DNA from: Bacillota bacterium
GTDB lineage: Bacteria > Bacillota > Clostridia > Lachnospirales > Bianqueaceae
Reading direction: 5' to 3'
Length of the DNA: 64,000 nt
Assembly: GCA_017442735.1 (NCBI GenBank)
Contig: JAFRZE010000072.1
Location: 185,838-249,837 of the forward strand
This document shows, piece by piece, positions 3,449-23,028 of the stretch; position 1 is the stretch's first letter, and each line of letters begins with the position of its first letter. The translations under genes and the position numbers were made by a program. A model generated the notes under the pieces. The model was given only the letters and a program-made list of their open reading frames with translations. It made no database searches and was not told the DNA's origin.

Positions 3449-5109
3449 CTTATCACCTCCCCGATCAATCGAACGAAAAGGATCCCTTCTTCCAGCTTGA
3501 TATCGACCGGCACCCTGGCTTCCGGAATGGATATCTTCTCGTCCAGATCGCAGCTCATCCGGATCCCGACCGGAGAAACCGCGATCACAAGCTGTGTGAT
3601 CCGATCCCTCAGAATGTCCAGCGCCATGGAGAAAGTATCATACAGACGAAGCGCCATAAAACTGTTGATCATGCCGCCCGATGTATCTTCCGAAGGCTGT
3701 CCCGGGATACTTTCCCGGCAGTCCACCGTCGCTTCGATCCCCAGATAATGAAGATATCTGGCAGATTCTTCCAGTGCCAGTTCCAGTTCCCTGAGCGCTA
3801 TCTCACTCTCTTCCGCGGCCAGTAGAGTAAGATTTGTTTTTCGTTTGACAAACGCGTGATCGACTGCCAGATAGGCGATCTTTTTCCTGAGATCCGGATC
3901 ATTCGGCTCAAGGCATTCCAGTTCTTCCCGGATCTTTTGCTGATCCGGCACCAATTCCTCTGCCACGATCCCGTAAATACGGTTTCGAAGCTCGATCCGG
4001 TCCTGTTTTTCCCGGAGCCGCTGCTCCGCCTGGATCAGGTCATTCTCCGTTGCCAGCGTTTCATAGATCTCCTCCAGCTGAGACCTGAGACGGTTGACCT
4101 CACTGACGTCTTCGATCCAGAAAGCATAACCTGCCTGGATCTTCCTTCCCATCAGCCGGATATCCGGTGTCGGAAACACCGGTTGATCCAGCGACTGGAT
4201 CAATTGTTCTCGAGAGACCGAATACTGCCAGGCTGCCTGATAGCGCGGCACAAAGTCCTGATTCGTGATCATGGTCGGGAGGCTCATTCCCTCAAAGAAC
4301 AGGTCATATTGGCTGTTGTATGCAAAAAGCCGCAGCCGTATACAGTTTTCCCAGATCGCCATCATGCAGAAAACATGGGCTTCATAGGTCTGATACAGGA
4401 CAGGGATGCCGGCCTGTTTCAAATACGGCGGAGAAAGCTGAAGAAACGCATAGAGCAGCGGAAGGATCGCGAGCGACGCGATCGTTCGCCACGACCGGGT
4501 CGTCAGCGCGTATCGGAATGTGATCAGAAGTCCATACAGATAAAGGACGACCATCCCTCCATAGATGACATAAAATCCAAACCCGTATGTATAGGAATCC
4601 GATTTCGACGCCAGAAACTGTCCCACCGGTTTCCAGACCCAGTAAGTAAGATCATTGGTAAGGACCAGCAGGATCAGCGAAGCAAGTATGACGATCAGCA
4701 ATATCTGCTGGATCTTCCGTCGGCGGCTTCCCAGCGTCTCGACCGATGTCATCGCGAACATGCCGGGGATCACCAGGATCGGTATATAGCCAAGATACCA
4801 GAGCCACCGATCCAAAAGGTCCGAACTGTTATACCGATATTTGATGGTCCGGATCAGAATCAGCACTAGCATGCATCCCGCAGCAATAAAAGTATAGATC
4901 CGTGCCTTTGTCGGCAGCAGACGATACCTCACGGAAATCGTCCAGAACATGACAAGGCCGAGATAAATCAACGTATTGACCGTGAAGAGAAACGATGTCA
5001 CAAAATAGCTGTCGGTGATCCCTTCAAAAATATGGAGGATGCCTGCTAAAAGAAAAAGACAGACAAAAACCGTGGTATTCCGGGTCAGATCCTTTTCCTG
5101 GTGATCCAT
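3445..5109 (-). CDS. Polytopic membrane protein (about 10 TM) with C-terminal coiled-coil and degenerate histidine-kinase-like domain; candidate accessory sensor of the adjacent HK/RR
   Basis: 554 aa; about 300 N-terminal residues are hydrophobic helices. The C-terminal 250 aa lay out like the neighbouring HK (DHp-like VDHAFVKRKTNLTLL) but lack a clear N-box and G-boxes. Its stop overlaps the HK start. Confidence 0.6.
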   Translation of the reverse strand: MDHQEKDLTRNTTVFVCLFLLAGILHIFEGITDSYFVTSFLFTVNTLIYLGLVMFWTISVRYRLLPTKARIYTFIAAGCMLVLILIRTIKYRYNSSDLLDRWLWYLGYIPILVIPGMFAMTSVETLGSRRRKIQQILLIVILASLILLVLTNDLTYWVWKPVGQFLASKSDSYTYGFGFYVIYGGMVVLYLYGLLITFRYALTTRSWRTIASLAILPLLYAFLQLSPPYLKQAGIPVLYQTYEAHVFCMMAIWENCIRLRLFAYNSQYDLFFEGMSLPTMITNQDFVPRYQAAWQYSVSREQLIQSLDQPVFPTPDIRLMGRKIQAGYAFWIEDVSEVNRLRSQLEEIYETLATENDLIQAEQRLREKQDRIELRNRIYGIVAEELVPDQQKIREELECLEPNDPDLRKKIAYLAVDHAFVKRKTNLTLLAAEESEIALRELELALEESARYLHYLGIEATVDCRESIPGQPSEDTSGGMINSFMALRLYDTFSMALDILRDRITQLVIAVSPVGIRMSCDLDEKISIPEARVPVDIKLEEGILFVRLIGEVIR

Positions 5110-5149
5110 CTTTTTCCTCCTTTCCTGTCATCCTGTCGCTATCATAGCA

Positions 5150-5182
5150 TAAGAAAAAGGGACAAACAATTGTCCCTTTTGG
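5150..5182 (-). terminator. Rho-independent terminator downstream of Gfo/Idh/MocA gene
   Basis: Minus-strand RNA AAAAGGGACAAttgtttGTCCCTTTTTCTT: GC stem followed by a U-tract. Confidence 0.6.
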
Positions 5183-5205
5183 TGATCTTTGGTTTTTTCA
5201 GTTGT

Positions 5206-6339
5206 TTATTTCTCGAACTTGACAGTCTCGCCGGTCTCATAGGACTTGAAGCAGGCTTCCATGAGCCGCAGGACGCGAAGCGCGTGCTCCTGGGTAACGA
5301 TCTGTTCAGCTTCGCCGTTGCAGACTTCCGCGAAGTTCTTGTACAGTTCATTGTGGTCAAATTCCACTTTCGGAAGCGGAAGCTCTTCCACAGACTTTCC
5401 ACCCATACGGGGCGCCATGGTCTTGGTCAGACCTGCGCCGGCCAGGATCGGTGTGGTATCCTTCTCATCCCAGCTGTTCAGGCGGACCATCCGTCCCTGC
5501 AGTTTCCAGTTGAGGATCTCAGCGCTGCCCATGTCGCCGTAGATGCACCACAGCGGCTCGTTTACGAAGTGACAGGTGCCGACTTCCAGATTGACTCTCA
5601 GGCCACTTTCGAACGTGAGGGTGACCTGGATGCCGTCATCGCATTCCGGGTTGGTGATATAGGAAAGATCACAGTAGACTTTGGTGATCTTCTCACCTTT
5701 CATCATCGCGACGATACGATCGATAATATGTACGCCCCAGTCCATCATCATGCCGCCGCCGTACGCCTTGACTCCGCGCCAGTCTCCCGGGATGCCGCGG
5801 GAACCCATGACCTTGCATTTGATGTTGAATACGTTGCCGATCAGTTTCTCTTCATAGATCTTCTTAATGATCAGGTAATCCTCGTCCCACTCACGGTTCT
5901 GGCGGGGATAGAAGACCATACCTGTCTCTTTGGAAACAGCCATGACTTCCAGGAGTTCATTGGAATCGAGCATGACCGGTTTCTCACAAAGAACATGCTT
6001 GCCGGCACGCATTGCCTGGATCGCTTCTTCCTTGTGCAGATGGTTCGGGGTAGCGATCAGGATGGCGTCTACGGTAGGATCAGCCAGCATCGTTTCATAG
6101 TCCGGATAAACGTACATGCCAAATCCTCTGGCCCATTCCTGACGTGCGGGATCGATATCCACGATACCGGCAAGTTCCAGCATCTTGGAGATATCTGTCG
6201 TCGCGGGGCTGTCAAATCCCGGAACGTGTGCGTCCTTGACGAAATAGATCGCGTTGCCGGTCCCACTGAAGATCGCGACCGCGTGACCGCCGCCCATACC
6301 GCCACAGCCTACAATACCGATACGAATTTTTTTACCCAT
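5206..6339 (-). CDS. Gfo/Idh/MocA family NAD(P)-dependent oxidoreductase
   Basis: N-terminal Rossmann motif KIRIGIVGCGGMGGGHA, then ...EKPV.. motif. Start chosen at MGKK (RBS GGGAAG 8 nt upstream) rather than the upstream in-frame ATG at 6375. Confidence 0.85.
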   Translation of the reverse strand: MGKKIRIGIVGCGGMGGGHAVAIFSGTGNAIYFVKDAHVPGFDSPATTDISKMLELAGIVDIDPARQEWARGFGMYVYPDYETMLADPTVDAILIATPNHLHKEEAIQAMRAGKHVLCEKPVMLDSNELLEVMAVSKETGMVFYPRQNREWDEDYLIIKKIYEEKLIGNVFNIKCKVMGSRGIPGDWRGVKAYGGGMMMDWGVHIIDRIVAMMKGEKITKVYCDLSYITNPECDDGIQVTLTFESGLRVNLEVGTCHFVNEPLWCIYGDMGSAEILNWKLQGRMVRLNSWDEKDTTPILAGAGLTKTMAPRMGGKSVEELPLPKVEFDHNELYKNFAEVCNGEAEQIVTQEHALRVLRLMEACFKSYETGETVKFEK

Positions 6340-6464
6340 GATACTTCCCTTTCGAAAAGAAAATAATTGTTTCAACGGAAACTTATTAAAGATATTTTAA
6401 AAATGTCCCAAAGAGAATAATATCGTAAATCTGCCAAAAAGTCAACCCCTGTTCCTGCGCTTTT

Positions 6465-9606: not shown

Positions 9607-9654
9607 GATGCTCCATCCTTTAGTCCTTTAAAATGGTAAAATCCATGATAACAC

Positions 9655-9692
9655 AAATCGTCGGTAAATGCTACTGCACTTACCGACGATTT
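9655..9692 (-). terminator. Stem-loop / probable terminator between the oxidoreductase-fusion operon and dapH
   Basis: AATCGTCGGTAA-(12 nt loop)-TTACCGACGATT perfect 12-bp stem. U-rich tracts on both strands (TTTTTCC on plus, UGUGUUAU on minus). Confidence 0.5.
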
Positions 9693-9709
9693 TTCCTGTG
9701 TTTTCAGCC

Positions 9710-11335
9710 TTATTCCATTTCATAACTCACAAAGGCGAAGCGTTTGGAGTCTGCTGCCCAGGAGTTGACATTGATGCTGCCCTGCCCGCCGAAGAAGGAG
9801 AGGATGCGGTGCTGGTTGGATCCGTCCGATTCCATGAGCCACAGTTCGACCTGCATATCCGGCAGATGTTCCGCCGGGCTCAGGTGCCCTTTATGGTAAG
9901 CCAGGTAGACCGCTTTCTTTCCATCCGGTGAGATATGCGCGAACCAGTTGTTCTTTTCGTTCTTGGTGATCTGGGTCTGTTCGGAACCGTCTTTCTTCAT
10001 CCGCCAGATCTGCATCAGGCCGCTGTTAGTCGAATTGTACCAGATATACTCACCATCCGGTGAATACTCGGGACCATCGTTGAACCCGCCGCCGGTCAGA
10101 CGAACTTCTTCCTCACTGCCATCAGCCGCGATCGTATAGACATCCACCTCTCTCTTTCCGTTTATCTCACGGAAAGCGCAGTAGGCCAGCGTTTTTCCAT
10201 CCGGCGACCAGCCGTGAAGGAAGCTGGGAGACTTCGGGGTGATCTGTCTGGGAACACCTGTCTCGAACGGGATGATATATACATAAGAGCCCCAGCCGGT
10301 CTTCATGACCGGTGTGTTGCTGACCGCGATCGCACTCTCATCCGCCGCCAGGACATGATCGTTATTGCAGCGTACGCAGTCGCCAGTTTCGACCTTGCGG
10401 ATCTCTCCTGTCTGCATACTATAGGCGTAGATCAATCCTTCACTGTTGAATACCAGTTCATCGGTCTTTTTCAGCCAGTTGGGCGCTTCGATCACTTTGT
10501 CGAAAGAAGCCAGTACTTTCACTTCGCCGGTCTCGATATCCATGACGTTCAGGAAGCTTTTCTGGTTTCTGGTCGATCCGGCCATACCCATATTCTGGTA
10601 GACTTCCTGCATTTCCTCAAAGAGATCGCCGGAGAAAACATCCTGATCCACGATGTGCGGAAAGCCATACGCTCTTGCGAAGGCAAAGCAGGCTTTGATA
10701 TTAACGCCGCCTTTTCCGACTACAACCGCTTTCTTTTCATCAGAGAAATCTTTATAATGGACCGCCGCGACGCGGTACTGATTCCGCTTCAGAAGCGCGA
10801 CTTCATCCTCTCCCGCATAATGGACCCAACCCACATCGACCTGGGCATAAACTCTGCCCTGACAAAGATCCAGCAGATATTCATAAGCGCTTGTTCCGCC
10901 TATCTTCGTTTCGATATCGCCGGACTCGTTGTGGATGAGCAGTTTCGCGCCGACTTCTGCCAGAGCGTCCGCGACTGTCATATACTCGATCGATGCTTTC
11001 TGAAGTGAAAGGATACTCATATCCTGCGGTGTTTTGACCACGATAAACCGAATACCGTACTGCTTGCAGAAATCACGGATATAGTTTGCTCTTGCCGCGA
11101 GATTCTGCGCGAAGAAATGGACGGAAATGATATCCAGACCCATTTCTTTGATCTTCGGATAGAGCGACTCAAAAACATCGACCGGCCAGATCGCTTTCTC
11201 CAGGCCGGGAATCGGATCCAGCGCCACACAGGGCTCGATGAAATTATATCCCATCCCTGCGATCTTTTTCAGGGTCTCCTCGGTATTTAACGGGCTGTTG
11301 TAGCATACACCAAATAACTGTGCGCCAAGAATCAT
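9710..11335 (-). CDS. Fusion protein: xylose-isomerase-like TIM barrel (sugar phosphate isomerase/epimerase family) plus C-terminal TolB/PD40-type beta-propeller
   Basis: The N-terminal ~265 aa has the AP-endonuclease-2/xylose-isomerase-like barrel pattern. The C-terminal ~260 aa carries repeated WSPDGK / YSPDGE / ISPDGK blades typical of TolB-like propellers. RBS AAAGGAGAC; lies 19 nt downstream of the Gfo/Idh/MocA gene. Confidence 0.7.
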   Translation of the reverse strand: MILGAQLFGVCYNSPLNTEETLKKIAGMGYNFIEPCVALDPIPGLEKAIWPVDVFESLYPKIKEMGLDIISVHFFAQNLAARANYIRDFCKQYGIRFIVVKTPQDMSILSLQKASIEYMTVADALAEVGAKLLIHNESGDIETKIGGTSAYEYLLDLCQGRVYAQVDVGWVHYAGEDEVALLKRNQYRVAAVHYKDFSDEKKAVVVGKGGVNIKACFAFARAYGFPHIVDQDVFSGDLFEEMQEVYQNMGMAGSTRNQKSFLNVMDIETGEVKVLASFDKVIEAPNWLKKTDELVFNSEGLIYAYSMQTGEIRKVETGDCVRCNNDHVLAADESAIAVSNTPVMKTGWGSYVYIIPFETGVPRQITPKSPSFLHGWSPDGKTLAYCAFREINGKREVDVYTIAADGSEEEVRLTGGGFNDGPEYSPDGEYIWYNSTNSGLMQIWRMKKDGSEQTQITKNEKNNWFAHISPDGKKAVYLAYHKGHLSPAEHLPDMQVELWLMESDGSNQHRILSFFGGQGSINVNSWAADSKRFAFVSYEME

Positions 11336-11354
11336 CGCTTTGTCTCCTTTTTAT

Positions 11355-12557
11355 TTATCTGAAGGTCATTCCATGATCCGCCAGTGTCTTCATCAGGACT
11401 TCAGACGGTTTCACCTCGACCCATCGGCCTTCTTCCGCGCTCTTCAGACAGGCTTCCACAATGCGGACCACATAATCCGCTTCCGTGAAAGTCGCGTAGT
11501 TGACTTCCGCACCTCTCAGCGTCCGGTAAAACTCGCTGATCGTATTTTTCAGCGCGTCCGCCCATCCTACGGAATGGCCGGAAGAAAGCTGCGCGTAACG
11601 TACCGCGTCTCCGCTCACCATATCCGGACCCGCGAAGCGTACGATATTACCGATCTGACGATGATTGATATCCAGCTTATCCGCGTATTCCTGCTGCCAG
11701 GTCATAGAATAGTTGGAACCGTCCACATCGACCTGAAGGTCATTCTTATGACCTCCGGCGACCTGCGACAGGGTTACCTGACCTTTGGTACCGTCATCGA
11801 ATTCAACGATGACAAAAGCGGAGTCTTCAGAAGAAATGTCTACCAGCTCATACTCTTCCGGTGCGGCCGTCTCAAAGGTCCTGACCTGTTTCAGAGGCTT
11901 TTTGCGCTGTGGGATCACGGTCTGCATATCGCAGAATACCTTAACGATCTTATGGCCTGTGACATACTGTGCCGTATCGAACCAGTGGGAACCGATGTCC
12001 GCGATCGTCCGGGAAACGCCGCCCAGCGCGGGAACGACACGCCAGTTATAATCTGTATCATACATCATCCAGTCCTGCAGGTAGTGGCCGCGGACCGCGT
12101 AGACTTTACCGACAGGACCAATCGGATCATTGATCTCTCCGTGGATCCGCTCATGCATTTCGCGGACCATCGCGTTCTGCCGATAGTTAAAGTTTACACC
12201 AGCTTTGGTTCCCTTTTCAACTACCAATCGTGCCAATTCTTCTGTTTCCTTACTGTTCATGCCCAGAGGTTTTTCGCAGTAAGCATACGCACCAAATTCG
12301 ATGACATCTTTCGCGATCTGGAAATGCGTGTTGTTGGGGGTACAGATGTGGACGACATCCGGTTTTTCCTTTTCCAGCATTTCCTTATAGTCGGTATACC
12401 ACGCGGGGATCGCCTGCTCTTCCGCCAGTTTTTTCGCGGATGCCTCAAACATCTCAGAGATAGCTACGATCTGTGTCCCGGGGATTCGACGGATCGCTTC
12501 CATATGCTGCTTTCCGATAAACCCTCCACCAATAACGGCTACACGTAAAGTTTCCAT
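11355..12557 (-). CDS. Gfo/Idh/MocA family oxidoreductase
   Basis: METLRVAVIGGGFIGKQHMEAIRRIPG Rossmann N-terminus; CEKPLGMN motif. RBS GGAGGT. Confidence 0.85.
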   Translation of the reverse strand: METLRVAVIGGGFIGKQHMEAIRRIPGTQIVAISEMFEASAKKLAEEQAIPAWYTDYKEMLEKEKPDVVHICTPNNTHFQIAKDVIEFGAYAYCEKPLGMNSKETEELARLVVEKGTKAGVNFNYRQNAMVREMHERIHGEINDPIGPVGKVYAVRGHYLQDWMMYDTDYNWRVVPALGGVSRTIADIGSHWFDTAQYVTGHKIVKVFCDMQTVIPQRKKPLKQVRTFETAAPEEYELVDISSEDSAFVIVEFDDGTKGQVTLSQVAGGHKNDLQVDVDGSNYSMTWQQEYADKLDINHRQIGNIVRFAGPDMVSGDAVRYAQLSSGHSVGWADALKNTISEFYRTLRGAEVNYATFTEADYVVRIVEACLKSAEEGRWVEVKPSEVLMKTLADHGMTFR

Positions 12558-12696
12558 AATCAGACCTCCAGTATAAAGATTGAATGATTTTTGTTCGTTC
12601 TTTTGATTGTTATTCTATCATTTGGATATAGAAAGACTCTATCACATTTATTCGATTTATGTTATAATCGTCACATCAATTCAAAGGAGCATCTTC

Positions 12697-13422
12697 ATGC
12701 CAAATCTTGAAAAACAGCTTCGTTATATGGAATTTGTCCAGCGGGAAGCCGGAGCCCGGCATCAGACTGTAGAAGAAGATAACCAAATCTGGGATTATAT
12801 CAAAGCAGGCGACCTTCGATCAGTCGAATCCCTGCGTTCCAATTACGCCCGGCAGCTTGCCGGCACCGTCTCCAAGGATCCTCTTCGCAACGCGAAATAT
12901 CTCTTTGTCGCCACCTGTACCCTGGCGGGAAGAGCCGCGATGTCTGTCGGAATGGAATCGGAAAGATCCAATACCGCCAGTGACCTGTTTATCCAGCGGG
13001 CGGACATGATGGATGATATTGATCAGATCCGTCAGTTGGAAGAAGAAATGATCCGTTTCTATACGCTGGAAGTCGCCGCACTGGATAAAAAATCTGTCTT
13101 TTCTCTGATTATCAGCCGCGCGCTGGATTATATCTACATGCATCTTCATGAGCCGATCACTGTGGAAGACGTCGCGGACGCTGTCGGGATCAGTCGTGGT
13201 TACTTTTCTTCTCTTTTTAAACAGGAGATGGGAATGGGTGTAGCCCAGTATATTCTGAGCAAACGTATGGAAGCTGCCCGCAACATGCTTCGCCATTCGG
13301 ACATGTCCTACGCGGAGATCAGCCAGATTCTGGCCTTCAGCTCCCAAAGCCACTTTATTGCCGTTTTCAAAAAGGTCAACGGTTGTACGCCGAAAGAATA
13401 CCGCATGAGGGAAGCACAATGA
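12697..13422 (+). CDS. AraC/XylS family transcriptional regulator
   Basis: C-terminal dual HTH (VEDVADAVGISRGYFSSLFKQEMG ... YAEISQILAFSSQSHFIAVFKKVNGCTPKEYR). Start at MPNLEK with RBS AAAGGAG. Its stop overlaps the MATE start (ATGA). Confidence 0.85.
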   Translation: MPNLEKQLRYMEFVQREAGARHQTVEEDNQIWDYIKAGDLRSVESLRSNYARQLAGTVSKDPLRNAKYLFVATCTLAGRAAMSVGMESERSNTASDLFIQRADMMDDIDQIRQLEEEMIRFYTLEVAALDKKSVFSLIISRALDYIYMHLHEPITVEDVADAVGISRGYFSSLFKQEMGMGVAQYILSKRMEAARNMLRHSDMSYAEISQILAFSSQSHFIAVFKKVNGCTPKEYRMREAQ

Positions 13423-14828
13423 CCAATCTGAACAATCGATTCAACTGGAAAGACTTTTTAAAGCGGCTGGCCGTCATCGCTATTCCGGTGGCCCTGCAGA
13501 ATCTGCTCACTACCACCGCCAGTATGCTCGATACCATGATGGTCGCCCCGCTGGGCGAACTATCTGTCGGTGCGCTGGGACTGTGCGCGCAGTTTTCCTC
13601 TCTGATGTTTTCCTGTTACTGGGGCTTTGTCGGGGGCGGCGGTCTTTTCTTCGCGCAGTACTGGGGATCGAAGGAAGATGACGGAATCGAACGCTCCTAT
13701 GGCGTTACTCTGTGCTTTATGATGTTCGTGGCGGTCACCTTTGCCTCGCTGGCACTATTCGCGCCGGAACTCATGATGCGCCTTTATACCGATAAGGAAT
13801 CGATCCGCGTGATCGGCGTCAAATATCTCCGGATCGTCGGCTTTGCCTATATCTTCCAGGTCCTGTCGATGTGTATGAGCGTCCTGCTCCGCTCGACTGA
13901 AAGAGTACGGATCCCGCTTTATGCTTCCATCGCGTCTGTCGCGACCAATCTCTTTCTGAACTATGTGCTGATCTTCGGACGTTTAGGCTTTCCCGCATTG
14001 GGGATCCAGGGTGCGGCTATCGCGACCGTTGCCGCAGCCGTTGTGAACGCGGCTGTCATCTATATCATCTCTGCTGCAAAAAAATATCCGTACCTGTTCC
14101 GGATCCGCGGTCACTTCCGCTGGAACCGAGAGTTCATCGCTCTCTATCTGAAGAAATGCTTCCCAATCATCTGTAATGAATTACTGATCGGTATCGGCAA
14201 CATGGTGATCAATATCACCTTAGGCCGTCAGCCGGAATATGTCATAGCGGCAGTTTCTGTCTTCCGTACACTGGAAGGTCTGGTCATCGGTTTCTTTGCC
14301 GGATTCACGAACGCCGCTTCCATTCTTGTCGGCAAGCTTGTCGGCGCGGGCGAACTGGACACGGCCTACGAGCGGGCGAAACGGCTGGTCTATCTTTGCA
14401 GCAGTGTCATTTTCTGTGTTGGGCTGATCATATTTGCCCTGCACAAACCGATCCTCACGGCCATGAGTCTTTCCGGACCCTCCTACGAGGCCGGAACGAT
14501 CATTCTGGCCATCTATCTGTTCGTTTCCATCATCCGTATGGGTAACTGGATCCATAACGATACCTACCGTTCCGCCGGTGACGCCGTCTATGGAACCGTA
14601 CTGGAAATCGTTTTCATGTACGTCATGCTGATGCCGGCTGTCCTTTTATCCGGCTTCGTCTTCCACGCGCCGTACTGGGTCGTGTTCCTCTGCTGCTATA
14701 TCGATGAACCTATCCGGTATTTCCTGATGCAGCGGCACCTCTATTCCGGCAAGTGGATCAAGCCGGTCACAGATGTCGGCAAAGCCGCTCTGCCGGCTTT
14801 CATGGAAAAACGGAAACGCACCGCCTAG
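13419..14828 (+). CDS. MATE family efflux transporter
   Basis: 12-TM profile with NorM/MATE hallmarks at the N-terminus (NLLTTTASMLDTMMVAPLGELSVGALGL). Start at MTNL with RBS GAGGGAAG. Confidence 0.8.
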   Translation: MTNLNNRFNWKDFLKRLAVIAIPVALQNLLTTTASMLDTMMVAPLGELSVGALGLCAQFSSLMFSCYWGFVGGGGLFFAQYWGSKEDDGIERSYGVTLCFMMFVAVTFASLALFAPELMMRLYTDKESIRVIGVKYLRIVGFAYIFQVLSMCMSVLLRSTERVRIPLYASIASVATNLFLNYVLIFGRLGFPALGIQGAAIATVAAAVVNAAVIYIISAAKKYPYLFRIRGHFRWNREFIALYLKKCFPIICNELLIGIGNMVINITLGRQPEYVIAAVSVFRTLEGLVIGFFAGFTNAASILVGKLVGAGELDTAYERAKRLVYLCSSVIFCVGLIIFALHKPILTAMSLSGPSYEAGTIILAIYLFVSIIRMGNWIHNDTYRSAGDAVYGTVLEIVFMYVMLMPAVLLSGFVFHAPYWVVFLCCYIDEPIRYFLMQRHLYSGKWIKPVTDVGKAALPAFMEKRKRTA

Positions 14829-15788
14829 TCATCTTTCCCTGTATTCTTTAGGTGAACAGCCATATTGTTCCCGGAAAGTACGGTAAAAATAGCTGCTGTT
14901 TTCATATCCGATCAGTTCGATGATCCGGTCTACCGACAGAGCTGTGTTTCTCAGAAGGTAATCCGCCTGCTGTAATTTCCGGGTCTGAAGCAGTTCTTTA
15001 AAATTCTTTCCCAGCCGCCTTTTGATCAGGCGGCTGATATAATATGTAGGCTGATGAAGTATTTCGCTGATCTCGGCCAGCGTACCGGACTGGTAGTGAT
15101 GGTCAACGTAATCCAGCACGGAAAAGACCAGGCTCTGTTCTATCTGTGCCGGATCGCTACGGCTGATTGAATCTGCAAATCGGGACAGGTTCATAAGAAG
15201 AAGTCCCATAGATGTCTGGTTGATCGTATCCATCATGGGCGTATGACCAATCAAGGTCCAGAGCATATTTTCGATGAGGTTCTCCACCGGAATGATCCCT
15301 TTGGCCTTGATATAAAGGTAATCCGTGAGCTGGTTCTCACCGGAGAGCGTACTGATAAGGAAATCCCGCAGCAGGTTCTCCCGTTCGATCATGGAGATCG
15401 GTCGGTCGAAGAATTCCGGAAGGATCAGGAAATTAACCGCGATATCCTTTTCCCCGGCAGGCAGGATCTCATGCGAGGCCTGTTGGTTCAGGAACAACAG
15501 ATCGCCTTCTTCCAGCACGATCGTTGTCTTTTTGTTGATGATATGTGTGATGCTCCCGGCGCACATATAGACGAGTTCCACATAGTTATGCCGATGGCTC
15601 GGAAAATAGACAAACCGGGTATGCGGCCGGATCTCGATCAGCTTTCCCTTTTCCAGAAGCAGCCTTGAATCGATGACAAAGTCACGGCCTGTCGTATAGA
15701 GTTCCTGATGGATCTCGGTATCCCCGGCAAGGATCTCCCTCTCTTCCGGTGTGATCTCACTGAGCTTTTCCAGTAATTCCTCTCTCAT
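14829..15788 (-). CDS. AraC family regulator (cupin sensor + HTH), probable rhamnose regulator
   Basis: N-terminal cupin-like domain (HRHNYVELVYMCAGS), C-terminal AraC HTH (YSPKEYR). Transcribed divergently from rhaB. RBS GGGAGGA. Confidence 0.75.
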   Translation of the reverse strand: MREELLEKLSEITPEEREILAGDTEIHQELYTTGRDFVIDSRLLLEKGKLIEIRPHTRFVYFPSHRHNYVELVYMCAGSITHIINKKTTIVLEEGDLLFLNQQASHEILPAGEKDIAVNFLILPEFFDRPISMIERENLLRDFLISTLSGENQLTDYLYIKAKGIIPVENLIENMLWTLIGHTPMMDTINQTSMGLLLMNLSRFADSISRSDPAQIEQSLVFSVLDYVDHHYQSGTLAEISEILHQPTYYISRLIKRRLGKNFKELLQTRKLQQADYLLRNTALSVDRIIELIGYENSSYFYRTFREQYGCSPKEYRER

Positions 15789-15933
15789 AAGACATCCTCC
15801 CTGTTTCTGAAACCTACTATATCATACTCTGCCGGAAAGTGCAAATAAGGTCCCTCATCTTTCTTGATGAGGACCTTTCTTTTTCTCTCTTGGAGAAGTA
15901 CAATGACATCGACAAGTGTAAAGGAGGTCATTT

Positions 15934-17388
15934 ATGGCAAAATACTCTCTTGCAATCGATATCGGCGCGTCTTCCGGACGACATATCCTGGGCTGTGTCC
16001 AGGATGGAAAGCTCGTACTGGAAGAGGTTTTCCGCTTTGATAACCGTCAGGTCCACCGAAACGGGCATGACTGCTGGGACGTCCAGAACCTCTGGGACGG
16101 GATCCTCGGCGGTCTGAAGGCCTGCAGTGCTCTAGGAAAGATCCCTGAAACGATCGGGATCGATACCTGGGGCGTGGATTATGTATTACTGGATGAAAAT
16201 GATCAGATGATCGGTGACGCTGTCGCTTACCGGGATTCCAGGACAGAAGGAATGGACAAAGTCGTGGATAAAATCATCCCTGTACAGAAACTTTATGAAA
16301 AGACCGGTATCCAGAAACAGCTTTTCAACACGATCTATCAGCTCGTTGCCCTGAAAAAAGAATCTCCTGAGCAGCTTGAAAAAGCCGCTTATCTGCTGCT
16401 GATCCCCGATTATTTCAATTTTCTGCTGACAGGGGTGAAAAAGCAGGAATACACTATCGCTTCGACCAGCGGACTTGTGAATGCACGTACAAAAGAATGG
16501 GATCTGGATCTGATCGATTCCCTCGGGATTCCGACCCGGATTTTTGATCATCTGTCGATGCCGGGTGATGTCGTTGGACATCTTCTTCCGGAAATCCAAG
16601 AAAAGATCGGTTACGATGCGACGGTTTTACTTCCACCGACCCATGACACCGGTTCCGCCTATCTGGCCGTCCCGGCTAAGGATGACTACGCAGTCTATCT
16701 TTCCAGCGGTACATGGAGCCTGCTCGGTGTAGAAAACACGGAGCCGATCACGACAGAAGAAAGCCGTCTTCAGAACTTTACGAATGAAGGCGGAGCCTGG
16801 TATCGTTTCCGCTATCTGCAGAACATCATGGGTCTGTGGATGATCCAGTCCGTCAGACGTGAACTGAACGGTACGGCCTATGTCCAGGGGCGTGTATCCA
16901 AATATACGGATGGACGTAAATGGAGTTTTCCGGATCTGGTCGAAGCCGCTAAAGGCGCACAGAGTTTTCCGTCCGTCGTTGACGTCAATGAAGATCGGTT
17001 CCTGGCGCCAGAAAGCATGATCGACGCGATCAAAGATGCCTGCCGCGAGTCGGGTCAGCCTGTTCCGGAATCTGTTGGCGAGATCATGCAGACCATCTAC
17101 ACAAGTCTCTCCCGCTGCTACAAAGAAGCCATTGAAGGCCTTGAAAAGCTGACCGGAAAGCATTATACCAGCATCAATATTGTCGGCGGCGGCTGTCAGG
17201 ATATGTATCTCAATCAAATGACCGCAAACGCGACCGGCCTTATGGTCTACGCGGGACCGGTCGAAGGAACCGCGATCGGCAATCTGATCGTTCAGATGAT
17301 CCGGCAAGGTCAGATCAGAGATCTCGCCGAAGCCCGTCACATCATAAGAAACAGTTTTGATATCAAAATCGTGTCTAAGGAGGACTAA
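15934..17388 (+). CDS. rhaB: Rhamnulokinase
   Basis: FGGY kinase; AIDIGASSGRHILG ... GIDTWGVDYVLLD ... AYRDSRTEGM closely parallels E. coli RhaB motifs. RBS AAAGGAGGT. Confidence 0.85.
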   Translation: MAKYSLAIDIGASSGRHILGCVQDGKLVLEEVFRFDNRQVHRNGHDCWDVQNLWDGILGGLKACSALGKIPETIGIDTWGVDYVLLDENDQMIGDAVAYRDSRTEGMDKVVDKIIPVQKLYEKTGIQKQLFNTIYQLVALKKESPEQLEKAAYLLLIPDYFNFLLTGVKKQEYTIASTSGLVNARTKEWDLDLIDSLGIPTRIFDHLSMPGDVVGHLLPEIQEKIGYDATVLLPPTHDTGSAYLAVPAKDDYAVYLSSGTWSLLGVENTEPITTEESRLQNFTNEGGAWYRFRYLQNIMGLWMIQSVRRELNGTAYVQGRVSKYTDGRKWSFPDLVEAAKGAQSFPSVVDVNEDRFLAPESMIDAIKDACRESGQPVPESVGEIMQTIYTSLSRCYKEAIEGLEKLTGKHYTSINIVGGGCQDMYLNQMTANATGLMVYAGPVEGTAIGNLIVQMIRQGQIRDLAEARHIIRNSFDIKIVSKED

Positions 17389-17390
17389 AG

Positions 17391-18812
17391 ATGTTAGTTG
17401 AAACCAAAGCCAAAGTCGGCGTATTCGCGATCGCGCTCGGCGCTTATCTGCCCCAGTTTCCTTCGCTCGTACCTGAATTCGAAGGACAGTATGAAGCTTT
17501 CAAGAAGACCTTGCCGACAAGTGTGGAACTGATCGATGGCGGGATCGTCACCACCAAAGAAAAAGCCATGGAAGCCGGTGACAAGTTCCGCGCCGCGGAT
17601 GTGGACCTGGTTATCCTGCAGATGCTGACCTATGCTACTTCCTACAACATGCTGCCGGTCGTCCGTGATCTGGATGTGCCAGTCGTTATCGTGAACGTAC
17701 AGAAGAAGAAGGCGCCGGATTACGCGAATACCGATACCGCTACCTGGCTGGGCGAGCTTTACGCATGCGGTGCGGTCGGTGAGATGGTCGCGGATCTGGA
17801 ACGCGCTGGCAAACGTCACGCAGTCATCACCGGCGTCGTAGAAGGCGGAGATCCCGGTGTACAGGCCGAGATCGAAGACTGGTGTAAAGCCGCGCAGGTG
17901 CGCCGTCGTTTCCGTGACACGAACCTCGCTCAAATCGGCCGTCCCTACCCGGGCATGATGGATCTGTATATCGATGAGACAAATCTTTACCACCGCATGT
18001 GGCTCTATACCAAGCAGTTCGACTGGGAAAAGATGTGGGCGATCGCCGACAACATCACCGATGAGGAAGCGATCCGCGCCAAGGCGCAGGACATCCTGGA
18101 CACCTTCGAGATCGAAGGCGGCGGCACCATTGAGAAAGTCTGGGATATGGCAAAGTACGTGGTCGCTTTCGAGCAGTGGGTCAAAGATGAAAAACTTGGT
18201 TTCGTCGCTTCCCACTATGACGGATTCGCCCAGGGTATCGCCGGTAAGCTCGATTCCATGCTGATCCCCGCATTCTCCATGCTGATCAAGCAGGGGACCG
18301 CCTGTGCCGTGGAAGGCGATATCAAAGTCGCCATGGCCATGAGCATTCTCAAGACCATCTCCGGTATGGGACAGCTTTCCGAGATGTATTCCATTGATTT
18401 CAATGAAGATATCTGCATCATCGGCCATTCGGGATCCGGAGATGCCGACATTTCCAAAGCCAAAAAGCCTACCATGAAGATCGTGCCTGTTTTCCATGGC
18501 AAGACCGGCGGCGGCTACTTAACGCAGTTCTATCCGACATCCGGTCCGGTCACTTATCTGGGCATTACACAGGATAAGGACGGCCATTTCAAGTTTGTCG
18601 TGGCAGAAGGAATCAATGAAGATGGTCCGATCTTTACCTTCGGCGACACCAACATGCGTACCCGATTTACGATCGGCGCCCGCGAATTCGTGAACCGCTG
18701 GTCCGAAGCCGGCCCCACCCATCATATGGCTGCCGCTTCCGGCCGTCATATTGATACTATTTTGAAAGTCGCCAAGATCTTCAATGTCCCGGTAGATGTC
18801 ATTACCCGATAA
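17391..18812 (+). CDS. Sugar isomerase of the L-arabinose/L-fucose isomerase (AraA/FucI) family, candidate non-orthologous L-rhamnose isomerase
   Basis: 473 aa. N-terminal KVGVFAIALGAYLPQF and central CAVEGDIKVAMAMSILKTISG resemble AraA YEVWFVIGSQHLYG / [21 protein letters not shown]. No similarity to RhaA. Sits between rhaB and rhaD. Confidence 0.6.
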   Translation: MLVETKAKVGVFAIALGAYLPQFPSLVPEFEGQYEAFKKTLPTSVELIDGGIVTTKEKAMEAGDKFRAADVDLVILQMLTYATSYNMLPVVRDLDVPVVIVNVQKKKAPDYANTDTATWLGELYACGAVGEMVADLERAGKRHAVITGVVEGGDPGVQAEIEDWCKAAQVRRRFRDTNLAQIGRPYPGMMDLYIDETNLYHRMWLYTKQFDWEKMWAIADNITDEEAIRAKAQDILDTFEIEGGGTIEKVWDMAKYVVAFEQWVKDEKLGFVASHYDGFAQGIAGKLDSMLIPAFSMLIKQGTACAVEGDIKVAMAMSILKTISGMGQLSEMYSIDFNEDICIIGHSGSGDADISKAKKPTMKIVPVFHGKTGGGYLTQFYPTSGPVTYLGITQDKDGHFKFVVAEGINEDGPIFTFGDTNMRTRFTIGAREFVNRWSEAGPTHHMAAASGRHIDTILKVAKIFNVPVDVITR

Positions 18813-18829
18813 ATCAGGAGGAAACAGAG

Positions 18830-19660
18830 ATGAAAGTTTTAGATGCAGAATTTGTAAAAGGTTTTATTCAGATGGCGGAAGATGGCTGGCAAAAAGGCTG
18901 GCATGAAAGAAACGGCGGGAATCTTTCCTACCGGATCCGCCCCGAAGAGATCGAATCGGTCAAAGAAGAACTCGTTCCCGGCGAATGGATCAGCACGAAG
19001 ACTGAAGTTCCGCTGCTGGGCGGAGAGTATTTCCTGATCACCGGCACCGGCCGTTATTTCCAGAACGTCATCCGTAAACCCGCGGAATCCTTTGGTATTA
19101 TCGAGCTGGATGAGGCCGGCGCCAACTACCGTATCTGCTGGGGTCTGGAAAATGGAGGCCGTCCCACCAGTGAGATCCCTACCCACCTGATGAATCATGA
19201 AGTGAAGTTCCGCGTGACCGGCGGCGCGCATCGTGTCATCTATCACTGCCATCCCGTCAATACCATCGCACTGACCTTTGTTCTGCCGCTGACAGATGAA
19301 GCCTTCACCCGCGAGATCTGGGAAATGATGACGGAATGTCCGGTCATCTTCCCCACCGGGATCGGTGTGGTTCCGTGGATGGTTCCCGGCGGACGCGCGA
19401 TCGGCGTGGAGACCTCTAAACTGATGGAACAGTATGACGCCGCTATCTGGGCCCATCACGGCATGTTCTGCTCCGGCCCTGATTTCGATACGACCTTCGG
19501 TCTGATGCATACTGTCGAGAAGGCCGCGGAGACTCTGGTCAAAGTGATCTCCATGACCGGCGGAAAGAAACGTCAGACCATCACACCGCAGGACTTCCGC
19601 GATCTGGCTGTTGACTTCAACCTGACTCTGCCGGAGAAATTCCTGTTTGAAAAAGAGTAA
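18830..19660 (+). CDS. rhaD: Rhamnulose-1-phosphate aldolase (class II aldolase)
   Basis: 276 aa. WHERNGGNLSYRI, GTGRYFQNV and TSEIPTHLMNH match E. coli RhaD (WDERNGGNLTLRL, GSGKFFRNV, TSELPAHFLSH). Confidence 0.85.
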   Translation: MKVLDAEFVKGFIQMAEDGWQKGWHERNGGNLSYRIRPEEIESVKEELVPGEWISTKTEVPLLGGEYFLITGTGRYFQNVIRKPAESFGIIELDEAGANYRICWGLENGGRPTSEIPTHLMNHEVKFRVTGGAHRVIYHCHPVNTIALTFVLPLTDEAFTREIWEMMTECPVIFPTGIGVVPWMVPGGRAIGVETSKLMEQYDAAIWAHHGMFCSGPDFDTTFGLMHTVEKAAETLVKVISMTGGKKRQTITPQDFRDLAVDFNLTLPEKFLFEKE

Positions 19661-20893: not shown

Positions 20894-21754
20894 TCATTCC
20901 TCCTTTGATGGGTCAAATTCTTCTTCTACACTATAATCAACGGTATCGGAAAAGTGCCACCATTCTCCCGAATATGGTTCAAATCCAGCATCGATCATGA
21001 CATCTTCCAGCAGAAGGGCATTGATCGTCTCAACTTCCGTGCAGTCGGAATAGTCACGATCTGCACGATATGAGAAATCATCAAACCCTGTCGGCATCTC
21101 CACTTCATTTCCGTCCAGCGTTATGATGGTCAGATCCACGGTGTTCCCACAACTGTGCAATGAGTACCCTGTGATGGGATTCGCGACATACCGCGGATCC
21201 GGGCAGACCTCCCAGAGAACATACTGCGCTGAAACCGGACGAAACGCGTCCCAGATCAGCAGCTTGTAGCCCAGCTCCTTCAAAGCTTCCTGCGCCTCAG
21301 CCAGTTTTTTCACCGTACCATAGCGAAGGTATGCTTCCGTGAAATCATAAATGACCGCGCCTGTAAAGTTCTGATCGGTCGCGTACATGAGCATCACTTC
21401 CACATCAGGGATATAGTCTTTCACCCTCACAAAATCTTCGTCATCCGGTTCCACTGCAGATTCTGCCGGTTCTTCCGATTCCTCTGTCGACTCTTCCGCA
21501 GGCTCACTCTGCGACGATCCTTCGCTGTCTTCCGCTTCACTGGCAGAGTCTGTCTTGATCTCTGGTACTTTCTTGCCCTCTCTGGCCTCTGATTCTTCTT
21601 CCTGTGCTTCAGAAACCTCAGAGATCATCTCTTCCACAGGCTGACTGCTTACCTCATCGAGTTCATCAGTTTTTTCTCGGCACCCTGATACCAGGAGCAG
21701 CAAGAATCCCGCTGTCATTCCTACCACAAGTAATCTGAAAAGCCATCTGCGCAT
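20894..21754 (-). CDS. Exported D-Ala-D-Ala dipeptidase-like M15 metallopeptidase (DdpX/VanX family) lipoprotein
   Basis: Signal peptide + LVSGC lipobox; Glu/Ser-rich linker. The catalytic domain IWDAFRPVSAQYVLWEVCPDPRYVANP...HSCGNTVDL...GEWWHF parallels E. coli DdpX (IYDAYRPQQAQAMLWQACPDPQYV ... HSRGTAIDL ... SEWWHF). Confidence 0.75.
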   Translation of the reverse strand: MRRWLFRLLVVGMTAGFLLLLVSGCREKTDELDEVSSQPVEEMISEVSEAQEEESEAREGKKVPEIKTDSASEAEDSEGSSQSEPAEESTEESEEPAESAVEPDDEDFVRVKDYIPDVEVMLMYATDQNFTGAVIYDFTEAYLRYGTVKKLAEAQEALKELGYKLLIWDAFRPVSAQYVLWEVCPDPRYVANPITGYSLHSCGNTVDLTIITLDGNEVEMPTGFDDFSYRADRDYSDCTEVETINALLLEDVMIDAGFEPYSGEWWHFSDTVDYSVEEEFDPSKEE

Positions 21755-23028
21755 CAGTTAAAAATCACCTCTGAGATCAACGTGTCGTCGAACTCGGTTC
21801 CCTTATAGACACTTTGTATGTAAATCGTCACACTTGAGGCGTAGTGCATTGGCTCGAAGGTAAGTACCTGAGATTTCATCACATCCTCGAACGGAACGAG
21901 CTCGCTGCTCACTCCATCCGGTCCGTCAAAAACGATCAGCAATTCCTTCGGGCGGGAATTTTCACCAAAGAGTTTCTCGCTCTTATGATATCCGGCATAG
22001 ATCTCTATCTTCTGGATATAATAACTGCCGTCAAACTCTACTTTCACCCATTCATTTTCTCCGTACCCATCCACGCCTTCACACCAGGCGTTTTCAAGCG
22101 TGCCGTCACAGATCATCGCGCCGGAATGATCGAGCCCGAGATTTGATTCGTCCAGTTCGGAAGAGGCTGTGATTTTCACGATCGACGGAGATACGATCTC
22201 AACAGGCACGGAGGATTCAGTTTCTGGTTCTGATTCTTCCACTGGTTCTGAAGGCTCCGGTTCAGAAGATTCTGATGTCTCCAAGGATTCCGCCTCTGAT
22301 ACTTCCACCGGCTCCGAGACCTCAGGCTCTGAGACCTCAGGCTGCGAGGACTCAGGCTTGGATTCTTCCACTGGCGGTGTCTCCTCTACAGTTTCAGGCT
22401 CCGATGTTCCCCCACTGATCAATGATTCTTCCTCACTGCGAAGCTTTTCTACCTGTTCATCGCGGATCCTGGATAATTCTTCCCTGGGAAGATTGGCAAA
22501 CAGTGAGTCATGCATCGAGTTGAACCTCTTGTTCTGCGGCATATATCCGCCGCACCGTTTGACCATCCTTTCATCCGTATCATACAGCATCAGATAGAGA
22601 GAATACCCATCGCAGACATCCATTTCCGGCTCCGGATCGAGCAGATAGAGTTCTTCCCGGTCGATCGCTTTTTCAATGTTCTGATATTGCTCATCCGTCA
22701 GAGTCACGGTAGCGATCAGACCCCAGTCTTCCGCGGAATAGTTCTCGACTTTTGTCGGCAAATAAACCAGCACGGTATGATCCGTACAAATGATCAGTTC
22801 CGCACTGAGACAGTCAAAGTATTCACCCCAGCTGCTTCCGCCGTAATAGGTACCCACCAGATACTTCGAAGAAAACTCGGGCACTTCGACTACTTCGCCT
22901 CCGCTGCTCTCTTCTTCCTTTTTTATATCTTTTCCTTTATCCCTGTCCTCGATGCCATCCGTTTTCATACATCCCGCGGAAAAGACCATCAGCAGGACGA
23001 GGAAAAGAATAAACCATGTCTTTTTCAT
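21754..23028 (-). CDS. Lipoprotein with acidic SE/PE-rich low-complexity linker and C-terminal beta-sandwich (discoidin/F5-8-like) domain
   Basis: Signal peptide, AGC lipobox, repeats PEVSEPEVSEPVEVSE. C-terminal GLDHSGAMICDGTLENAWCEGVDGYGENEWVKVEF is typical of galactose-binding-like domains. TGATG overlap with the downstream gene. Confidence 0.55.
   Translation of the reverse strand: MKKTWFILFLVLLMVFSAGCMKTDGIEDRDKGKDIKKEEESSGGEVVEVPEFSSKYLVGTYYGGSSWGEYFDCLSAELIICTDHTVLVYLPTKVENYSAEDWGLIATVTLTDEQYQNIEKAIDREELYLLDPEPEMDVCDGYSLYLMLYDTDERMVKRCGGYMPQNKRFNSMHDSLFANLPREELSRIRDEQVEKLRSEEESLISGGTSEPETVEETPPVEESKPESSQPEVSEPEVSEPVEVSEAESLETSESSEPEPSEPVEESEPETESSVPVEIVSPSIVKITASSELDESNLGLDHSGAMICDGTLENAWCEGVDGYGENEWVKVEFDGSYYIQKIEIYAGYHKSEKLFGENSRPKELLIVFDGPDGVSSELVPFEDVMKSQVLTFEPMHYASSVTIYIQSVYKGTEFDDTLISEVIFN
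22300..22365. repeat. Short tandem DNA repeat (about 15 bp unit, about 3 copies) encoding the acidic linker
   Basis: ctccgagacctcaggctctgagacctcaggctgcgaggactcaggc: imperfect tandem copies of gagacctcaggctct. Confidence 0.5.

Follow-up and report, generated by a model that had tools for sequence, protein, structure and literature searches.

Glycosides that resist ordinary glycosidases, among them thioglycosides, C-glycosides and some drugs, are cleaved by gut and soil bacteria through a route of oxidation, elimination, hydration and reduction that was recognised only in 2020-2024. Here, a candidate for such a route was analysed in a 64-kb stretch of DNA from a Bacillota bacterium (Clostridia; Lachnospirales; Bianqueaceae; contig JAFRZE010000072.1, positions 185,838 to 249,837), which is called the window throughout. 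A bicistronic operon on its minus strand encodes a Gfo/Idh/MocA dehydrogenase, Gfo400, followed by a fusion of a xylose-isomerase-like TIM barrel to a six-bladed beta-propeller, and it is probably a compact version of the oxidise-then-eliminate way of cutting glycosides.

Among the described systems, the best match of the TIM half, both as a sequence and as a family profile, is AtOGE of Agrobacterium tumefaciens (PDB 8BVK; Bitter et al. 2023, PMC10628242). AtOGE is likewise a short lid-less barrel of about 250 amino acids (aa) and works with an oxidoreductase that makes its 3-keto substrate. It differs in being a stand-alone dimer without a propeller, partnered by the flavoenzyme GlycDH, the separate TIM hydratase AtHYD and a Gfo reductase. 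AL1 and BT1, the 3-keto-beta-glucopyranoside-1,2-lyases of the Alistipes and Bacteroides BT2156-2160 clusters (PDB 8TCD and 8TCT), share about 20% identity with the TIM half. Their periplasmic four-enzyme clusters include a DUF1080 lyase/hydratase and two Gfo proteins, whereas the window system is cytoplasmic by prediction, consists of two genes and carries a fused propeller. The levoglucosan pathway LgdA/LgdB1/LgdB2/LgdC of Bacillus smithii and Paenarthrobacter (PMC7676230, PMC10066097) follows the same oxidise-eliminate-hydrate-reduce logic with TIM-barrel enzymes, while the window operon has no separate LgdB2 and LgdC genes. DgpA/DgpBC and CarA/CarBC resemble the window pair in combining a Gfo-type oxidoreductase with a xylose-isomerase-like Mn lyase that acts on a 3-keto sugar, but DgpC and CarB have no detectable sequence kinship to the TIM half and a lower structural score. 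The propeller has its counterpart in Atu1656/AGR_C_3050 (PDB 2OJH, a structural-genomics 'putative TolB'), a stand-alone protein of 297 aa, whereas the window domain is fused behind a lyase-like TIM barrel. The logic of the pathway is thus already known (PMC7676230; PMC10628242; bioRxiv 10.1101/2024.03.25.586180; Mori et al. 2021, as cited in PMC10628242). What is new is that an AtOGE/AL1-like barrel is fused to an Atu1656-type propeller, that the system has a two-gene format and that comparative evidence places this orphan propeller family near Gfo, SDR, AKR, VOC and AtOGE-like genes.

The operon is laid out as follows:

11355..12557, minus strand: Gfo400, a Gfo/Idh/MocA NAD(P)-dependent sugar dehydrogenase of 400 aa, first gene of the operon (Pfam)
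11336..11354, minus strand: intergenic spacer of 19 nucleotides (nt) with the ribosome-binding site AAGGAG of the fusion gene (sequence)
9710-11335, minus strand: fusion gene, TIM barrel plus propeller, 541 aa in all
10580..11335, minus strand: fusion residues 1-252, xylose-isomerase-like TIM barrel akin to 3-keto-glycoside beta-eliminases
9713..10564, minus strand: fusion residues 258-541, six-bladed Atu1656/2ojh-type beta-propeller (stop codon at 9710-9712)
9646..9706, minus strand: terminator-like hairpin ending the operon, before dapH (folding energy)

The first-pass annotation had placed a co-operonic Gfo/Idh/MocA oxidoreductase and TIM-propeller fusion at 9710-12557, and both the genes and their arrangement were confirmed: the two genes lie 19 nt apart, a hairpin follows the fusion gene and an AraC gene is transcribed divergently. 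The hairpin folds with a minimum free energy of -32.3 kcal/mol (z = -9.0), which 0 of 200 shuffles equalled, and is directly followed by the U-rich stretch UUUGUGUU. The start codon of Gfo400 is preceded by GGAGG.

The TIM half adopts a xylose-isomerase-like TIM-barrel fold and is nearest, by profile and by fold, to AtOGE, AL1 and BT1, which are 3-keto-O-glycoside beta-eliminases. As a single sequence it matched AtOGE with an E-value of 2e-6, while its family profile retrieved AtOGE, AL1 and BT1 from the PDB at 4e-26, 1e-22 and 4e-20, respectively. The same profile reached IolE at 3e-7, UlaE at 1e-3, EndoIV at 0.012 and IolI at 0.014, and no DgpC or CarB chain was listed among its PDB matches. 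The comparison proposed in the first-pass annotation therefore left IolE, IolI, the epimerases, endonuclease IV and DgpC/CarB further off, and the AP-endonuclease likeness that it had raised as an objection was not seen among the best matches. A word-indexed profile search for the TIM family returned 22 proteins.

Published active sites of AL1 and BT1 (bioRxiv 10.1101/2024.03.25.586180) and of AtOGE were mapped onto the TIM half through HMMER alignments, and residues were counted in two 61-sequence alignments, one of the fusion family and one of the wider TIM family. The metal triad H135/D167/H193, equivalent to AtOGE H132/D163/H189 and AL1 H178/D211/H237, was present in 61/61 sequences of both, which bears out the conservation of metal-binding residues that had been singled out for checking. 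H73 and W170, equivalent to the substrate-positioning H103 and W214 of AL1, occurred in 61/61 fusions. Position 232, which aligns with AL1 Glu272, BT1 Glu275 and the AtOGE Glu233 region, was Asp in 44 and Glu in 17 fusions and is Asp in the window protein. D230 is invariant in the fusions, and the beta8 Glu that AtOGE carries is replaced by an Asp-Gln-Asp motif. Because the metal triad, H73/W170 and a beta8 carboxylate are kept but the second His of the H-N-H motif is changed, the TIM half, as judged from these alignments, is related to the 3-keto-glycoside lyases but has diverged, with one of their defining residues altered, and it is not filed as an orthologue. On the evidence available, it would work like a 3-keto-glycoside lyase.

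Gfo400 belongs to the Gfo/Idh/MocA superfamily (Pfam PF01408, PF22725 and PF02894 at 91.9, 73.7 and 67.5 bits, respectively, all over their gathering scores), with a Rossmann domain at the N-terminus and an alpha/beta domain at the C-terminus, and carries the motifs GGGFIG (Rossmann), CEKP and DIGSH. It is one of a large family, in which members of about 380 aa were found at 48-63% identity. The best NCBIfam model, aligned over its full length, was levoglucosan dehydrogenase (LGDH) NF052479 at 150.5 bits, while NF058561 (BT_2158) and NF058563 (BT_2159) reached 45.3 and 23.9 bits against cutoffs of 750 and 650, respectively. Orthology to LGDH was rejected at 150 bits against an equivalog cutoff of 650, and levoglucosan is an unlikely substrate in the rumen or gut. 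The best PDB matches were 4h3v, 4gqa and 6a3f at about 1e-29 (the LGDH structure 6a3f at 3e-29), and scyllo-inositol/L-glucose dehydrogenase was also among the matches.

DgpA appeared among the PDB matches of Gfo400 as well (E-value about 5e-17), and C-glycoside lyases share their fold and Mn site with AtOGE (PMC10628242). Both points would suit cleavage of a C-C bond in C-glycosides, as by DgpA with DgpBC or CarA with CarBC, with the propeller replacing the beta subunit. Membership of the C-glycoside deglycosidases (DgpBC/CarBC/DfgAB) was rejected, since no gene for a small beta subunit is present and the neighbours are only Gfo400, AraC, MATE and dapH; C-glycoside cleavage is regarded as a very remote prospect.

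A free cyclitol or keto-sugar could also be the substrate, in which case the dehydrogenase would be followed by a TIM dehydratase, isomerase or epimerase without glycosidic cleavage, as in IolG/IolE or YcjS/YcjR. The profile distance of IolE (3e-7, against 4e-26 for AtOGE) argues against this, as do the scores for the inositol models TIGR04379 (27 bits, cutoff 290) and TIGR04380 (114 bits, cutoff 355) and the absence of any inositol-catabolism (iol) gene among the neighbours scanned with Pfam and NCBIfam at about 5.2-15.8 kb of the window. On the same scores and gene content, membership of IolE/IolG was rejected. Together with the clustering of a 60% identical Gfo400 relative with AtOGE-like and AtHYD-like genes, this leaves a cyclitol route clearly unlikely. 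The interpretation in the first-pass annotation is thus supported in part: of the two pathway types that it had offered, the 3-keto-glycoside route is favoured, while inositol catabolism and kinship to DgpC/CarB are not.

The cluster with the 60% identical relative (L094:1-10469, and also L095) comprises LacI, a Gfo, a sugar ABC transporter, the Gfo400 relative, a 320-aa TIM protein, two VOC proteins, a 250-aa TIM protein and a third VOC protein, and a MATE gene lies beside it. The 250-aa TIM protein is clearly homologous to AtOGE (1e-27), retains both the HNH motif and the beta8 Glu, and matches the TIM family profile of the window at 4e-35. For the 320-aa TIM protein, the best characterised relative is the 2-hydroxy-3-keto-glucal hydratase AtHYD (1e-9). 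One of the VOC proteins is homologous (6e-14) to a VOC domain that is fused to a propeller in another locus (L069), and a homologous VOC gene adjoins the AtOGE-like TIM gene. This architecture is that of the described four-enzyme 3-keto-glycoside clusters, and the cluster looks like a complete, undescribed Firmicute-type 3-keto-glycoside pathway.

The contexts of 25 distinct fusion loci and 57 stand-alone propellers were surveyed by Pfam scans of neighbouring open reading frames (ORFs) and all-vs-all clustering of ORFs within 6 kb. A Gfo/Idh/MocA gene lay within 300 nt of 11/25 fusion loci, mostly co-directional and with gaps of 11-79 nt, while stand-alone propellers had one within 300 nt in 4/57 and within 6 kb in 8/57 loci. 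The fusion-adjacent partners fall into three subfamilies. One recurring orthogroup, YvaA/YhhX-like, contains partners 68-79% identical to each other (L005, L010, L012, L081) and more distant ones at 40-44% (L019) and 34-35% (L017), and the partner in L003 is different again. A first tblastn search (1e-5) had made the pairing appear nearly unique to the lineage of the window; this was rejected as a sensitivity artefact, given the 11/25 found by Pfam and clustering. Other neighbours of the fusions are OYE flavin reductase, Fe-S aldo-keto reductases, GH42, GH20, PfkB kinases, LacI and MATE. Stand-alone propellers neighbour SDR (10 loci), AKR, LacI, sugar ABC transporters and GH2/GH3. No stand-alone TIM gene of the family was found beside a stand-alone propeller in the 57 loci, and the contexts of two stand-alone TIM-family genes were uninformative.

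The same survey bears on whether the adjacency of Gfo400 and the fusion is coincidental, with the fusion acting without Gfo400, for example with the propeller as a primary PL22-like metal-dependent lyase, and Gfo400 serving another pathway. Such a reading would fit the 14/25 fusion loci without an adjacent Gfo, a 55% identical Gfo400 relative that stands alone (L096), the exchange of the fusion gene as a separate allele (72% identity) behind a conserved Gfo400 (97%) and the presence of PL22 oligogalacturonate lyase among the Foldseek matches. Against it stand the 19-nt spacing without a terminator between the genes, and the Gfo adjacency in 44% of fusion loci across three subfamilies, which is far above the chance expected for a family estimated at well under 1% of genes. 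In L092, moreover, only 4 nt separate an 81% identical Gfo400 relative from the gene of a 541-aa fusion behind it, and a divergent AraC gene is present as in the window, in a neighbourhood otherwise unrelated to the latter (FMN dehydrogenase, VOC, GH1, ROK, GDSL). Because the pair is kept together there, it appears to travel as a unit; a divergent AraC gene also accompanies it in L001. Coincidental adjacency is accordingly held to be very doubtful.

The propeller half belongs to the Atu1656 (PDB 2ojh) family, with which it shares high sequence and structural similarity and the invariant motifs. It had been described as a six-bladed TolB/PD40-type propeller, of which the six blades stand and the TolB assignment does not: TIGR02800 gave 94 bits against 343, and a TIM barrel takes the place of the TolB N-terminal domain. 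TolB of the Tol-Pal system is further ruled out by the lack of an evident signal peptide on inspection of the sequence, the absence of tol/pal genes next to the operon and the apparently Gram-positive, Clostridia-type host. A scan of one genome per species gave at least 594 loci with the propeller motifs, and the best 80 were taken further. These 80 comprised about 23 TIM fusions, hosted by rumen and gut Clostridia, Lachnospiraceae, Oscillospiraceae and one Treponemataceae, and 57 stand-alone propellers from Bacteroidales, Paenibacillus, Cohnella, Anaerolineae, Synergistaceae, Atribacteria and others. A literature search found nothing published on the Atu1656/2OJH propeller family. The fusion architecture, which the first-pass annotation did not recognise from described systems, is common but goes only under the generic names 'PD40 domain-containing protein' and 'TolB family protein'.

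At 78 propeller positions, identity reaches 95% or more across 83 sequences from six or more phyla, and in the fusion family conservation is higher in the propeller than in the TIM half. Invariant polar residues of the propeller are E283 and N286; N324, N325, D326 and H327; H374 and W376; D420 and E423; W464 and H467; H490; and Q518, most of them in the strand before the SPDG-type turn of successive blades. We read them as probably forming one pocket on the axis face of the propeller, because they recur periodically along the sequence. Bacteroidales stand-alone copies carry N-terminal signal peptides, while Firmicute and Chloroflexota copies and the window fusion have none. Since the propeller would work in both periplasm and cytoplasm, a need for NAD(P)H or ATP is unlikely. 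The copies with signal peptides, predicted to be periplasmic, are L025, L027, L028, L032, L033, L039, L041-L043, L050, L059, L062 and L073.

The propeller occurs alone, fused to a TIM barrel or, in one locus, fused to a glyoxalase/VOC domain. That locus (L069:9500-10912, Anaerolineae) holds an in-frame fusion to an N-terminal VOC domain in an ORF of 470 aa from a non-ATG start; translation from an internal ATG would yield the propeller by itself. Stand-alone propellers are directly flanked by homologous VOC genes in Cohnella, Paenibacillus and an Oscillospiraceae metagenome-assembled genome (L055, L068 and L076).

Two roles of the propeller within the oxidation-elimination route were weighed. 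It may be an unrecognised catalytic module, namely a cofactor-independent, possibly metal-dependent 2-hydroxy-3-keto-glycal hydratase or a second eliminase; this is put forward tentatively, as a possibility with less than even standing. Alternatively, the route would be the same and the propeller non-catalytic, serving over the TIM site as a lid that binds substrate or aglycone or as a scaffold for oligomerisation, like the DgpB/CarC small subunit. The closest characterised fold relatives, TolB, YWTD and NHL propellers, are binding modules, the predicted structure of the fusion (predicted template modelling score, pTM, 0.80) would imply a rigid two-domain unit, and in C-glycoside lyases a partner subunit provides aglycone contacts (PMC10628242). 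Yet the 78 near-invariant positions are also preserved in stand-alone copies whose genomes have no adjacent TIM gene, and a lid for diverse aglycones would be expected to vary, whereas the propeller shows higher conservation than the catalytic TIM half. The invariants also consist largely of polar or ionisable residues (His, Asp, Glu, Asn) together with conserved Trp, and a purely non-catalytic propeller is considered unlikely. An oxidative non-phosphorylative sugar-acid route, in which Gfo400 would oxidise the C1 of an aldose to a lactone, the propeller would act as lactonase and the TIM half would convert the product, is regarded as highly improbable.

Taken together, there is about an even chance that the operon works in the cytoplasm, under AraC control, as a two-gene module that processes glycosides or anhydro-sugars in a redox-assisted, non-hydrolytic way via a 3-keto intermediate, with the propeller in a coupled step. 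In the proposed mechanism, Gfo400 with NAD+ would oxidise a hydroxyl of the sugar ring, most likely the C3-OH as family and context suggest. In the TIM half, a divalent metal coordinated by H135, D167 and H193 would then bind the 3-keto group, a role to which the conservation of the active site points. H73 and W170 would position the sugar while D232, the equivalent of the catalytic Glu272 of AL1, abstracts H2, so that the C1 substituent would be eliminated and a 2-hydroxy-3-keto-glycal formed. More speculatively, the fused propeller would carry out the coupled next step, most likely hydration of the glycal, and the resulting 3-keto-sugar would be reduced back by Gfo400 itself. The hydratase role is proposed because described systems have a dedicated hydratase, the operon has none and a lyase-like domain is fused to a conserved module. 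Known hydratases are the TIM barrels AtHYD (PMC10628242) and LgdB2 (PMC7676230, PMC10066097) and the DUF1080 proteins AL2/BT2 (bioRxiv 10.1101/2024.03.25.586180), and no AtHYD, LgdB2 or DUF1080 gene is present in the operon.

Several points weigh against this proposal. The second His of the H-N-H motif (AtOGE His134, AL1 His180) is Glu137 in the window protein, and position 137 is E in 56, G in 4 and D in 1 of the fusions and G, H, N, S or E in stand-alone relatives; H134 of AtOGE is the proposed catalytic base, whose role its authors say mutagenesis was used to test (PMC10628242). Gfo400 scores far below the LGDH, BT2158 and BT2159 cutoffs, so its C3 regiochemistry is only inferred. Besides the 14 fusion loci without an adjacent Gfo noted above, the usual partner Gfo is of another subfamily, about 25% identical to Gfo400 over the Rossmann domain. 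Stand-alone propellers mostly adjoin neither TIM nor Gfo genes, and their contexts in Bacteroidales are mixed (GH2, GH3, AraC, SurA-like, DnaA, acyl-CoA dehydrogenase) and give no functional signal. The nearest solved relatives of the propeller are non-enzymatic (TolB) or uncharacterised (2ojh). AL1 and BT1 slowly hydrate the glycal themselves, so a dedicated hydratase is perhaps unneeded (bioRxiv 10.1101/2024.03.25.586180), and the assignment of the propeller as hydratase is speculative, its sole ground being the unfilled slot in the pathway.

Upstream of the operon, three further features were delimited:

12558..12696, no strand: divergent intergenic region of 139 bp, presumed promoter/operator of both units
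12697..13422, plus strand: AraC-family regulator of 241 aa (Pfam HTH_AraC/HTH_18, E-value 2e-23; public call also 241 aa)
13419..14828, plus strand: MATE efflux transporter (Pfam MatE 3e-41; TIGR00797 above cutoff)

The AraC gene is transcribed divergently from the Gfo400-fusion operon and starts at ATG 12697, with an alternative TTG at 12607. Promoter-like hexamers on the plus strand at 12641-12668 of the intergenic region are consensus matches only, from which a function would be inferred. The AraC stop and the likely MATE start overlap in ATGA at 13419-13422. A MATE gene occurs within 6 kb of 6/25 fusion loci (L001, L007, L018, L019, L023, L077); the exporter may be an associated component that might export the released aglycone, its membership being uncertain. 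Beyond the hairpin, dapH, lysA and an M20 N-acetyl-diaminopimelate-deacetylase-like amidohydrolase (Pfam/NCBIfam) belong to lysine biosynthesis. Their inclusion in the operon was rejected and they are taken as a separate unit, because the terminator intervenes and L092 lacks these genes. A PADLOC search gave no defence-system match for Gfo400 or the fusion protein.

A second Gfo/Idh/MocA gene follows dapH-lysA-M20 at 5206-6375 on the minus strand (389 aa) and is 98% conserved in L001; its residues 17-155 match positions 1-116 of the Pfam model, which suggests an insertion in the Rossmann domain. Antisense shadow ORFs lie opposite both Gfo genes on the plus strand, at 11340-12548 (402 aa) and 5101-6366 (421 aa). 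They were treated as non-coding and would mislead a length-based gene caller. On the other side, 14829-19660 holds genes for an FGGY kinase, an isomerase-like protein (weak Fucose_iso_C) and a class II aldolase, from which an AraC-type regulator (cupin + HTH) diverges; they probably make up an operon for the catabolism of L-rhamnose or L-fucose, distinct from the Gfo400-fusion operon. At 20894-23028 on the minus strand, a protein of 424 aa that ends in an NADase_transloc (F5/8 type C) domain adjoins an M15 D-Ala-D-Ala dipeptidase. The first-pass annotation had connected the locus to decorated plant glycosides such as flavonoid conjugates by way of a rhamnosidase operon, an esterase and a sulfatase in the window, and this connection was not supported by the genes that were checked. 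The GH78 rhamnosidase, GH43, GH2 and sulfatase genes lie 22-50 kb from the operon with no evidence linking them to it, the rhamnose-catabolism genes closer by (15934-19660) are accompanied by an AraC regulator of their own, and nothing in the evidence ties the operon to flavonoids.

Compared with its close relative L001, the window shows 88-92% DNA identity with sharp dips to 66-74% at two places, exactly over the fusion gene (9660-11440) and an FGGY rhamnulokinase-like gene (about 16000-17400). The two copies of Gfo400 share 97% identity. Fusion alleles group into separate clades: the window allele is at most 72% identical to any other, while that of L001 groups with P0001/P0002 at 86% and that of L092 with P0007 at 97%. 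This suggests gene-specific allele replacement by recombination. The public annotation (P0019, 9710-10612) gives a 300-aa 'TolB family protein' starting at the internal Met242 and omits TIM residues 1-241. As the public record calls only the propeller half of the fusion gene, this is an annotation error to be fixed.

The structure of an Atu1656-type propeller was solved in 2007, and a catalytic role, if true, would be the first function for a propeller family present in at least 594 species-representative genomes. Gfo400 and the fusion would then form a self-contained two-gene 'non-Koshland glycosidase', and the same enzyme would act alone in the periplasm of Bacteroidales and beside VOC, SDR or AKR partners in Paenibacillus and Chloroflexota. 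Should the propeller take part in the chemistry, the pathway would gain a new enzyme fold, thousands of proteins named 'TolB family' or 'PD40 domain' would gain an annotation, and the operon would provide a two-gene cassette that could readily be tested and used when screening for glycoside metabolism in rumen and gut.

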